A stretch of DNA of 64,000 nt from Escherichia coli (GTDB lineage: Bacteria > Pseudomonadota > Gammaproteobacteria > Enterobacterales > Enterobacteriaceae), in the NCBI RefSeq assembly GCF_003790525.1, contig NZ_CP033635.1; one strand, written 5' to 3'. Both the position numbers and the translations under genes were made by a program. The notes below the pieces were generated by a model. That model was given only the letters and a program-made list of their open reading frames with translations. It did not search any database and was not told where the DNA came from. Shown in pieces: positions 9,083 to 57,945 of this stretch. Each line of letters begins with the position of its first letter. Position 1 is the first letter of the stretch.

Positions 9083-9169
9083 GCCGAGGTGGTGGAATTG
9101 GTAGACACGCTACCTTGAGGTGGTAGTGCCCAATAGGGCTTACGGGTTCAAGTCCCGTCCTCGGTACCA
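9083..9169 (+). tRNA. leuU: tRNA-Leu (long variable arm, CCA-encoded)
   Basis: GCCGAGGTGGTGGAATTGGTAGACACGCTACCTTGAGGTGGTAGTGCCCAATAGGGCTTACGGGTTCAAGTCCCGTCCTCGGTACCA; acceptor stem GCCGAGG/CCTCGGT, T-loop GGTTCAAGTCC; immediately downstream of secG. Confidence 0.9.
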
Positions 9170-12951: not shown

Positions 12952-13028
<77 letters not shown>

Positions 13029-13152
13029 CTTTCCCTTAGAGTCCTTTTTCAAATATACTGTGAAGACTTCGGCCTTCGTAGTGGGATTTGAAAAAATCCT
13101 TCTGGAAAGTGCTCCAGACCGCAGTTGCGGTTATAGGGTTCAGTTATATAAA

Positions 13153-13177
13153 GCCCCGATTTATCGGGGTTTTTTGT
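13153..13177 (+). terminator. Rho-independent terminator/attenuator downstream of metY
   Basis: aaaGCCCCGATttATCGGGGttttttgtt; a second weaker hairpin GGGCtttaGGCCC+T7 at 13196-13217. Confidence 0.6.
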
Positions 13178-13234
13178 TATCTGACTACAGAATAACTGGG
13201 CTTTAGGCCCTTTTTTTATGTCTTGGGGGTGGGC

Positions 13235-13714: not shown

Positions 13715-15202
<1,488 letters not shown>

Positions 15203-15226
15203 TAAACTGTAGCAGGAAGGAACAGC

Positions 15227-17899
15227 ATGACAGATGTAACGATTAAAACGCTGGCCGCAGAGCGACAGACCTCCGTGGAACGCCTGGTACAGCAATTTGC
15301 TGATGCAGGTATCCGGAAGTCTGCTGACGACTCTGTGTCTGCACAAGAGAAACAGACTTTGATTGACCACCTGAATCAGAAAAATTCAGGCCCGGACAAA
15401 TTGACGCTGCAACGTAAAACACGCAGCACCCTTAACATTCCTGGTACCGGTGGAAAAAGCAAATCGGTACAAATCGAAGTCCGCAAGAAACGCACCTTTG
15501 TGAAACGCGATCCGCAAGAGGCTGAACGCCTTGCTGCGGAAGAGCAAGCGCAGCGTGAAGCGGAAGAGCAAGCCCGTCGTGAGGCAGAAGAATCGGCCAA
15601 ACGTGAGGCGCAACAAAAAGCTGAACGTGAGGCCGCAGAACAAGCTAAGCGTGAAGCTGCTGAACAAGCGAAACGTGAAGCTGCGGAAAAAGACAAAGTG
15701 AGCAATCAACAAGACGATATGACTAAAAACGCCCAGGCTGAAAAAGCCCGCCGTGAGCAGGAAGCTGCAGAGCTCAAGCGTAAAGCCGAAGAAGAAGCGC
15801 GTCGTAAACTCGAAGAAGAAGCACGTCGCGTTGCTGAAGAAGCACGTCGTATGGCGGAAGAAAACAAATGGACTGATAACGCGGAACCGACTGAAGATTC
15901 CAGCGATTATCACGTCACTACTTCTCAACATGCTCGCCAGGCAGAAGACGAAAGCGATCGTGAAGTCGAAGGCGGCCGTGGCCGTGGTCGTAACGCGAAA
16001 GCTGCGCGTCCGAAGAAAGGCAACAAACACGCTGAATCAAAAGCTGATCGTGAAGAAGCACGCGCAGCAGTACGTGGCGGTAAAGGCGGAAAACGTAAAG
16101 GTTCTTCGCTGCAGCAAGGCTTCCAGAAGCCTGCTCAGGCCGTTAACCGTGACGTTGTGATCGGTGAAACCATCACCGTTGGCGAACTGGCGAACAAGAT
16201 GGCGGTTAAAGGCTCTCAGGTCATCAAAGCGATGATGAAACTGGGCGCAATGGCAACCATCAACCAGGTTATCGATCAGGAAACCGCACAGCTGGTTGCT
16301 GAAGAGATGGGCCACAAAGTTATCCTGCGTCGTGAAAACGAGCTGGAAGAAGCGGTAATGAGCGACCGTGACACGGGTGCAGCGGCTGAACCGCGCGCGC
16401 CGGTTGTGACCATCATGGGTCACGTTGACCACGGTAAAACCTCTCTGCTGGACTACATTCGTTCAACGAAAGTGGCCTCTGGCGAAGCGGGCGGCATTAC
16501 CCAGCACATTGGTGCATACCACGTTGAAACTGAAAACGGCATGATCACCTTCCTGGACACCCCGGGGCACGCCGCGTTTACTTCAATGCGTGCTCGTGGT
16601 GCGCAGGCAACGGACATCGTAGTCCTGGTTGTTGCTGCCGACGACGGCGTAATGCCGCAGACCATCGAAGCAATCCAGCACGCGAAAGCGGCGCAGGTTC
16701 CGGTGGTCGTTGCAGTGAACAAGATCGATAAACCAGAAGCCGATCCGGATCGCGTTAAGAACGAACTCTCCCAGTACGGCATCCTGCCGGAAGAGTGGGG
16801 CGGTGAAAGCCAGTTCGTACATGTGTCTGCGAAAGCGGGTACTGGTATCGATGAGCTGCTGGACGCTATCCTGCTGCAGGCGGAAGTTCTGGAACTGAAA
16901 GCGGTACGTAAAGGCATGGCGAGCGGTGCGGTTATCGAATCCTTCCTCGATAAAGGTCGTGGTCCGGTTGCTACCGTTCTGGTACGTGAAGGTACTCTGC
17001 ACAAGGGCGATATCGTTCTGTGTGGCTTCGAATACGGTCGTGTTCGTGCTATGCGTAACGAACTGGGTCGGGAAGTGCTGGAAGCGGGTCCGTCCATTCC
17101 GGTGGAAATCCTCGGCCTGTCCGGCGTTCCGGCTGCGGGTGATGAAGTTACCGTTGTACGTGACGAGAAGAAAGCGCGTGAAGTTGCACTCTATCGTCAG
17201 GGTAAATTCCGCGAAGTTAAACTGGCGCGTCAGCAGAAATCTAAACTCGAGAACATGTTCGCCAACATGACCGAAGGCGAAGTTCACGAAGTGAATATCG
17301 TCCTGAAGGCAGACGTACAGGGTTCTGTGGAAGCTATCTCCGACTCCTTGCTGAAACTGTCTACTGACGAAGTTAAAGTGAAGATCATCGGTTCTGGCGT
17401 AGGTGGTATCACCGAAACCGACGCTACCCTGGCTGCGGCGTCCAACGCCATCCTGGTTGGCTTCAACGTACGTGCTGATGCCTCTGCACGTAAAGTAATT
17501 GAAGCGGAAAGCCTGGATCTGCGTTACTACTCCGTCATCTATAACCTGATCGACGAAGTGAAAGCGGCAATGAGCGGTATGCTGTCTCCGGAACTGAAAC
17601 AACAGATTATCGGTCTGGCGGAAGTTCGTGACGTATTCAAATCACCGAAATTTGGTGCCATCGCAGGTTGTATGGTTACCGAAGGTGTGGTTAAACGTCA
17701 CAACCCGATCCGCGTTCTGCGCGACAACGTGGTTATCTACGAAGGCGAGCTGGAGTCCCTGCGCCGCTTCAAAGATGACGTTAACGAAGTCCGTAACGGT
17801 ATGGAATGTGGTATCGGCGTTAAGAACTACAACGACGTCCGCACTGGCGATGTGATCGAAGTATTCGAAATCATCGAAATCCAACGTACCATCGCTTAA
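15227..17899 (+). CDS. infB: Translation initiation factor IF-2
   Basis: 890-aa [35 protein letters not shown]..., G-domain [12 protein letters not shown]; in-frame internal starts GTG 15698 (codon 158) and ATG 15719 (codon 165). Confidence 0.95.
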
Positions 17900-17914: not shown

Positions 17915-17988
17915 ATGCGGGATAAGGCGTTTACGCCGCATCCGGCATGGATTGCCTGATGCGACGCTGGCGCGTCTTATCAGGCCAA
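17915..17988. repeat. REP/BIME element (two inverted REP palindromes) in infB-rbfA spacer
   Basis: GCGGGATAAGGCGTTTACGCCGCATCCGGC followed by GCCTGATGCGACGCTGGCGCGTCTTATCAGGCC. Confidence 0.7.
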
Positions 17989-19460: not shown

Positions 19461-19826
<366 letters not shown>

Positions 19827-19842: not shown

Positions 19843-19872
19843 AAAAGGGGGCCTGAGTGGCCCCTTTTTTCA
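19843..19872 (+). terminator. rpsO rho-independent terminator
   Basis: aaaaGGGGGCCtgagtGGCCCCtttttt. Confidence 0.75.
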
Positions 19873-20072
19873 AGCTGACGGCAGCAATTCACTGGAAACT
19901 AATGTATTGTTGCTATGAATGATCTTCCGTTGCAGAGGTTCGCGCGGCTAATGAGAGGCTTTACCCACATTGGGCTGGGTTAGGGTTGTCATTAGTCGCG
20001 AGGATGCGCAGAAGATCGGGTATTAACACCAGTGCCGTAAGGTACTGTCTAAGAAAGAGAAAGGATATTACA
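19873..20072 (+). promoter_or_regulatory. pnp 5' leader/promoter region (site of RNase III-dependent autoregulation in E. coli)
   Basis: 200-nt untranslated spacer between rpsO terminator and pnp UUG start; assignment of function is from established knowledge, exact processing site not mapped here. Confidence 0.45.

Positions 20073-57568: not shown

Positions 57569-57945
<377 letters not shown>

Follow-up and report, generated by a model that had tools for sequence, protein, structure and literature searches.

The window, i.e. the whole stretch of 64,000 nucleotides analysed here, is collinear with the genome of E. coli SMS-3-5 (NC_010498.1, 3493997–3557996, reverse complement) and differs from it by 4 mismatches over the 64 kb. 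Around infB, the genes are arranged in the order argG / metY tRNA – rimP – nusA – infB – rbfA – truB – rpsO – pnp. SMS-3-5 and many other E. coli strains have an infB that is 100% identical to that of the window, and of 5426 complete E. coli genomes, 5425 gave a match to the gene. According to the open reading frame list and the translation, the full-length product IF2alpha starts with the ATG at 15227 and comprises 890 aa (97.4 kDa). Pfam matches were obtained for IF2_N (two stretches), IF2_assoc (residues 56–94), GTP_EFTU, EF-G_D2, IF-2 and GTP_EFTU_D2. With the architecture N1 IF2_N, IF2_assoc, linker, N2 IF2_N and G domain, the product is that of an infB orthologue with a long N-terminal region; the order IF2_N – IF2_assoc – IF2_N is present in infB orthologues in Pfam. 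In the PGAP annotation of SMS-3-5, infB is given as the full-length CDS only. The features discussed below are as follows.

15214..15222, plus strand: Shine-Dalgarno (SD) sequence AGGAAGGAA of the primary start ATG 15227, from the duplex with the 16S 3′ end.
15227..17899, plus strand: infB CDS (IF2alpha / IF2-1), stop codon included, from the open reading frame list, translation, Pfam and identity to other E. coli infB.
15227..15697, plus strand: segment found in IF2alpha only, codons 1–157 (Domain I: N1 sub-domain, IF2_assoc and repeat linker), from Pfam.
15536..15679, plus strand: six imperfect tandem units of 24 nt (8 codons), consensus GCGGAAGAACAAGCGAAACGTGAA (A-E-E-Q-A-K-R-E), from Tandem Repeats Finder and in-register comparison.
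15680..15702, plus strand: degenerate seventh unit of 23 nt, one base short relative to the repeat, from alignment to unit 6.
15683..15697, plus strand: putative internal ribosome-binding region GCGGAAAAAGACAAA, with a weak SD-like GGA at −13..−11 followed by an A-rich spacer.
15698..15700, plus strand: GTG, codon 158, start of IF2beta / IF2-2 (733 aa, 79.8 kDa), by direct reading and K-12 CDS YP_010283915.1.
15719..15721, plus strand: ATG, codon 165, start of IF2gamma / IF2beta′ / IF2-3 (726 aa, 79.0 kDa), as in K-12 CDS YP_010283916.1.

The earlier note had placed two in-frame internal initiation codons in infB, and both coordinates proved exact to the base: codon arithmetic (15227 + 157 × 3 = 15698; 15227 + 164 × 3 = 15719) agrees with the letters read directly. 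Both short products lack residues 1–157, i.e. Domain I, and differ from each other by 7 residues. The 157-aa Domain I of IF2 binds NusA, and IF2 forms of 97.3, 79.9 and 78.8 kDa have been described (PMC12297416), values with which the predicted masses of 97.4, 79.8 and 79.0 kDa agree. The presence of GTG158 and ATG165 is by itself not beyond chance expectation, infB containing 43 in-frame ATG/GTG/TTG codons and 116 NTG triplets over all frames. What raises the two codons above chance is the identity to the characterised K-12 allele, together with the strict conservation of the GTG and a trough of synonymous variation at this position.

In the RefSeq annotation of K-12 MG1655, infB is represented by three CDS of 2673, 2202 and 2181 nt, which have a common stop and begin at codons 1, 158 and 165. 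Comparison of the window with K-12 infB gave 38 differing nucleotides out of 2673, scattered over the gene, and one differing residue, 615, which is R in the window and Q in K-12. On either side of GTG158 (CDS nt 472), the closest differences are CDS nt 378 and CDS nt 561, and the two alleles are identical over CDS nt 379–560, that is from 94 nt upstream to 89 nt downstream of GTG158. It follows from this identity that internal initiation was demonstrated on the very sequence that the window has as its initiation region. The three-isoform arrangement that the earlier note had read from the window (codons 1, 158 and 165) was thus recovered with the same starts in K-12 RefSeq and with an identical initiation region.

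Internal initiation at these codons is documented in the literature. Expression of IF2-2 and IF2-3 was abolished by the exchanges gug>guc (g474c) and aug>acg (t494c) (Madison et al., PMC3334882), of which g474c affects the third base of codon 158 and is synonymous, and t494c affects the second base of codon 165. Meydan et al. (bioRxiv 10.1101/520783) reported well-defined Ribo-RET peaks at the internal start of infB that had been verified before. N-terminal peptides were detected for AUG1, GUG158 and AUG165, which places infB among the genes with evidence for a triplet of N-terminal proteoforms (PMC13245402), and a homologous infB proteoform pair was found in Salmonella (PMC11005335). Start-site profiling and N-terminal proteomics, on which the earlier note had let its reading depend, therefore bear it out in E. 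coli (10.1101/520783; PMC13245402). According to this literature, ribosomes initiate at codons 158 and 165 in K-12/BL21; by sequence identity, the same should hold for the window strain.

The system is that of E. coli K-12 infB tandem translation, with the same gene, operon position (metY-rimP-nusA-infB-rbfA-truB-rpsO-pnp) and codon numbers as in the window; citing papers credit its description in K-12 to Plumbridge 1985, Nyengaard 1991 and Sacerdot 1992. In the Ribo-RET set of Meydan et al., clpB and mrcB likewise give an N-terminally truncated proteoform from an in-frame internal start marked by a Ribo-RET peak. Unlike these two genes, infB of the window has two internal starts, which are 21 nt apart and located at the 3′ end of a 24-nt repeat array. 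The internal starts of infB are hence already known, being a textbook feature that is annotated in the K-12 reference.

Conservation was assessed within E. coli, among Enterobacteriaceae and beyond. The 42-nt core 15683–15724 occurs exactly in 5302 E. coli genomes and with the single synonymous exchange C15703T (AGC>AGT, codon 159) in 118 more, so that 5420 of the 5425 infB-carrying genomes have one of the two versions. The remaining 5 each deviate by a single mismatch towards the ends of the core, and in the one that was read, this corresponds to D163Y with both starts intact. ATG165 is accordingly fixed in at least 5420/5425 E. coli genomes carrying infB.

The Enterobacteriaceae set consisted of the window and 80 other species (81 sequences). 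Codon 158 is GTG in 81/81, and the stretches GCGGAAA (15683–15689) and GTGA (15698–15701) are likewise invariant in all 81. Use of one single codon throughout this set was observed in 2 of 21 conserved Val columns and in 8 of 160 conserved degenerate columns. The synonymous entropy at codons 153–160 is 0.09 bit, the minimum among the 8-codon bins of codons 1–392, where the other bins mostly range from 0.4 to 1.2 bit. These values point to a selective constraint at GTG158 and in the region upstream of it that would exceed the needs of the protein. ATG165 is kept in 71/81 sequences and replaced in Entomohabitans, Trabulsiella, Mangrovibacter, Shimwellia and a few others.

For comparison at the DNA level, 7 more distant relatives were picked from a protein search, whose hits were for the most part partial proteins. 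The sequence GCGGAAAAAGA[A/C/G]AAA-GTG was found exactly in Pantoea, Serratia, GCA_000406125, Proteus and Xenorhabdus, with diverging codons thereafter, and the motif GCGGAAAAAGAnAAA-GTG is kept in Pantoea, Serratia, Proteus and Xenorhabdus amid diverged flanking codons. At the position of codon 158, a relative with 54% identity has GTT and Plesiomonas has CGA. Among the Enterobacterales sampled outside Enterobacteriaceae, the beta start thus appears to be conserved in the five listed, and not in Plesiomonas. ATG165 is present in Pantoea, Serratia and GCA_000406125 and missing in Proteus and Xenorhabdus (Morganellaceae). Judged from these alignments, the gamma start is lineage-variable; its replacement in 10 of the 81 Enterobacteriaceae and its loss in Morganellaceae suggest that the third isoform is seemingly dispensable in some lineages. 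Intracistronic initiation in infB of other enterobacteria was reportedly described by Laursen et al. 2002 (Genes Cells 7:901). That system and the 80-species comparison are alike in the conserved GTG, the upstream block and the unstructured context, and differ in that the third start, ATG165, varies by lineage in the comparison based on the window.

Duplex energies with the 16S 3′ end were calculated for all 116 NTG triplets of infB. The primary start reached −6.5 kcal/mol (rank 4/116), GTG158 reached −3.5 kcal/mol with the trinucleotide GGA (rank 31/116), and the value of ATG165 was negligible (−1.9 kcal/mol, rank 84/116). The SD-like sequence that the earlier note had suggested looking for upstream of 15698 therefore exists in part, namely as the weak GGA 10–13 nt upstream of GTG158, with nothing comparable for ATG165. 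With ranks of only 31 and 84, a pure SD model would miss both internal codons, and SD-driven initiation was rejected as their main determinant. The 51 nt around the internal starts contain 51% A, compared with 27% across infB. Opening energies were predicted for a stretch of 30 nt (−15..+14). The two internal starts, each with 3.5 kcal/mol, occupy the first two ranks among the 116 triplets, as against 5.9 kcal/mol for the primary start and a mean of 11.1 kcal/mol for infB; this ranking is a thermodynamic prediction on naked RNA, which ignores ribosomes elongating from AUG1 across the site. In the same type of prediction, GTG158 was one of the three most open triplets in 70 of the 81 sequences, the window included. 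The minimum free energy fold of 15620–15800 is unpaired at 15687–15698 and 15719–15728, and no stable flanking RNA structure was found in this region, the fold having a z of −0.49 relative to shuffles. The internal site hence has less predicted structure than any other start context of infB. Its A-richness and openness agree with published work (PMC7043885), according to which E. coli starts are marked, independently of SD pairing, by contexts that are rich in A and unstructured, and A-rich sequences favour initiation in the absence of such pairing.

From these data, we consider it nearly certain that the window carries a standard E. coli infB, in which ribosomes initiate independently at three in-frame codons of one mRNA and thereby produce three forms of IF2. 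AUG1 (15227) would yield IF2alpha of 890 aa, GUG158 (15698) IF2beta of 733 aa and AUG165 (15719) IF2gamma/beta′ of 726 aa. For the two short forms, 30S subunits would load directly at the internal site within the coding region. The GGA, with a spacing of 10 nt, may be regarded as a vestigial SD; considering this together with about 50% A and the lowest predicted structure, initiation would proceed chiefly via accessibility and A-richness, with SD pairing being secondary. The mRNA footprint of an initiating ribosome is roughly 30 nt. Since the two starts are spaced by only 21 nt, GTG158 and ATG165 would be in competition for a single, common landing site, with mutual occlusion.

Three other explanations were weighed against this reading. 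If the short forms were proteolytic products of IF2alpha, GTG158 and ATG165 would be ordinary Val and Met codons, and the linker at about residues 96–215, being low-complexity, charged and plausibly protease-accessible, would offer a target. Proteolysis, however, makes no demand for a fixed GTG or for suppressed synonymous change at codons 153–160, and it is at odds with the initiation-complex peaks at the internal site (10.1101/520783) and with the initiation-indicative N-termini of all three forms (PMC13245402). In K-12 it is refuted by the g474c/t494c mutagenesis, in which a synonymous single-base exchange together with t494c sufficed to abolish the short forms (PMC3334882), so that its probability is practically negligible. 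A separate, shorter mRNA, arising upstream of 15698 from an internal promoter or through RNA processing and translated from a 5′-proximal start, is very improbable. Additional cold-responsive promoters do exist within the metY-nusA-infB operon (PMC6511841), but these are located in nusA and at the nusA-infB junction, outside infB. The title of a cited paper, which announces improved tandem IF2 expression in RNase E-deficient cells, hints at processing of infB mRNA. Against a separate mRNA, the conserved block resembles a ribosome-binding site (GCGGAAAAAGACAAA-GTG) and not a promoter, and a consensus search of 14900–16000 on either strand, which is a weak test, gave no sigma-70-like promoter match (mean of shuffles, 0.6).

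Another possibility is that GTG158 is the sole meaningful internal start and ATG165 minor or incidental, which would leave effectively two isoform classes. This would fit the absence of ATG165 from 10/81 Enterobacteriaceae as well as from Proteus and Xenorhabdus, compared with the universal GTG158 in Enterobacteriaceae, the lack of an SD match for ATG165 (−1.9 kcal/mol), and the fact that the short forms, only 7 residues apart, are usually pooled in papers as IF2-2/3. Opposed to this are the CDS from codon 165 annotated in K-12 RefSeq, the need to mutate both codons for elimination of the short forms (PMC3334882), the listing of infB with three start sites by N-terminomics (PMC13245402), and the fixation of ATG165 in at least 5420 of the 5425 infB-carrying E. 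coli genomes. We therefore regard it as unlikely and retain independent initiation at all three codons. Differences in function among the IF2 isoforms may concern DNA-damage tolerance and NusA binding by Domain I.

Beyond the known feature, the only mildly new results are of a quantitative kind. They concern the trough at synonymous sites, the rank of the internal starts in accessibility, the variability of the third start among lineages and the way in which GTG158 relates to the repeat. The infB internal start is a clean case that is missed by an SD-based predictor and caught by accessibility, A-richness and synonymous-site conservation; it is also a reminder that automatic annotation with PGAP gives the long infB CDS only.

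The repeat upstream of GTG158 was analysed with Tandem Repeats Finder, which returned a 24-nt period at 15599–15692 (3.9 copies, 77% matches) and an overlapping array at 15536–15591 (2.3 copies, 84% matches). Pairwise, the units have 15–20 of 24 bases in common; the two units encoding AAEQAKRE have 20/24 in common, and all four differences are synonymous. The tandem repeat of the N-domain, as asserted in the earlier note, is thus real at the nucleotide level, and the peptide quoted there is located within the six units, but the repeat does not surround the starts: the array is situated upstream and ends at GTG158. Its last base is 15679, or 15702 with the degenerate unit included, and the following stretch 15704–15775 matches the units at only 4–11 of 24 bases. 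Different repeats are located downstream of the internal starts at 15779–15862. Two minus-strand open reading frames over the repeat region, 15386–16030 (214 aa) and 15376–15705 (109 aa), gave no Pfam match; antisense genes were rejected here, the frames being read as by-products of GAA/GCN/CGT-rich sense codons.

Each of the six units contains an out-of-frame GTGA (15555, 15579, 15603, 15627, 15651 and 15675). The next GTGA follows after 23 nt instead of 24 and is that of GTG158 at 15698. The stretch 15680–15702 matches unit 6 in 18 of 24 columns with one gap, and its score of 15 versus the consensus was reached by 0.2% of shuffles and by 0.25% of other infB 23-mers. The unit match suggests an evolutionary reading, which we put forward tentatively and consider rather doubtful: GTG158 may go back to a degenerate unit at the end of the repeat, in which the loss of one base put the recurrent CGTGA in frame and the A-rich tail served as a landing pad. 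The repeat array is still dynamic, given that in E. coli strain E5 exactly one unit is deleted and IF2 has 882 aa. If this origin is true, changes in copy number such as that in E5 would be confined to the linker specific to alpha, with no effect on beta and gamma, and the ancestral state would be that of Plesiomonas, which has the regular repeat codons AAA-CGA-GAC at the corresponding position of the alignment.

Within infB of the window, GTGA was found out of frame at 24-nt spacing, at positions 15555, 15579, 15603, 15627, 15651 and 15675, and the in-frame GTGA, which is GTG158 at 15698, is located 23 nt past the preceding GTGA. Judged from the sequence, the GTG158 internal start of IF2 looks like a last repeat unit that was shifted in frame. 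In a single genome, E. coli strain E5 (NZ_CM172488.1), the infB linker was without exactly one 24-nt repeat unit, corresponding to window 15645-15668, giving an infB CDS of 2649 nt (882 aa). Because of this missing unit, the internal starts were renumbered to codons 150 and 157 in strain E5, with the surrounding context intact.

Across E. coli, the sole common polymorphism in the 42-nt core spanning both internal starts (15683-15724) was C>T at window 15703, a synonymous exchange (AGC>AGT, codon 159); of the 5425 infB-carrying genomes, exactly 118 had it. The window itself was compared with E. coli SMS-3-5 (NC_010498.1 3493997-3557996, reverse complement) and differed across 64 kb at four positions only:
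40152
54768
56348
59061

The part of IF2 upstream of the internal starts and the neighboring gene are located as follows:
13715-15202, nusA, 24 nt upstream of infB
15227-15697, Domain I, codons 1-157, contained in IF2alpha only

This IF2alpha-only Domain I is reported to bind the C-terminal domain of NusA (2025 paper, PMC12297416) and, with nusA lying 24 nt from infB, the coding sequences of the two interacting parts are thus neighbors. Use of the internal starts decides whether the NusA-binding part is present in IF2.

In the K-12 RefSeq record (NC_000913.3 3313342-3316014), the product name "IF-2beta'" was given to all three infB CDS, the full-length one included. In PGAP-annotated genomes, e.g. 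SMS-3-5, the full-length infB CDS alone was listed, so routine annotation does not show the IF2 isoforms. An Enterobacteriaceae-type infB with 84% identity was encoded on a contig (CACSKA010000008.1) that carries the label Chryseobacterium sp. 18061, and a partial IF2 labelled Vibrio parahaemolyticus gave a Proteus-like alignment; in both cases the record is probably contaminated or wrongly labelled. Of the 5426 E. coli genomes classed as "complete", one gave no infB match, even though infB is essential; within the same set, one match was located on a plasmid and one genome had up to 5 infB places, all of which are likely assembly or duplication oddities.

Long ORFs of 214 aa and 109 aa overlapped the infB repeat region on the minus strand (window 15376-16030). 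Neither had a Pfam match, and both probably arise as a by-product of GAA/GCN/CGT-rich codons being read stop-free in antisense.

The complete set of RNA features expected for this E. coli region, from the greA leader to the RNase P RNA, was found in the window:
2308-2429, greA leader
9083-9169, tRNA-Leu(GAG)
12952-13028, initiator tRNA metY
13117-13217, rimP leader
19499-19613, S15 leader
19843-20014, minus strand, SraG sRNA
57569-57945, RNase P RNA

In addition, the Rfam element naRNA4 (REP-type nucleoid-associated RNA element, 77 bits) was located at 17916-17986 in the infB-rbfA spacer, 17 nt past the infB stop codon.
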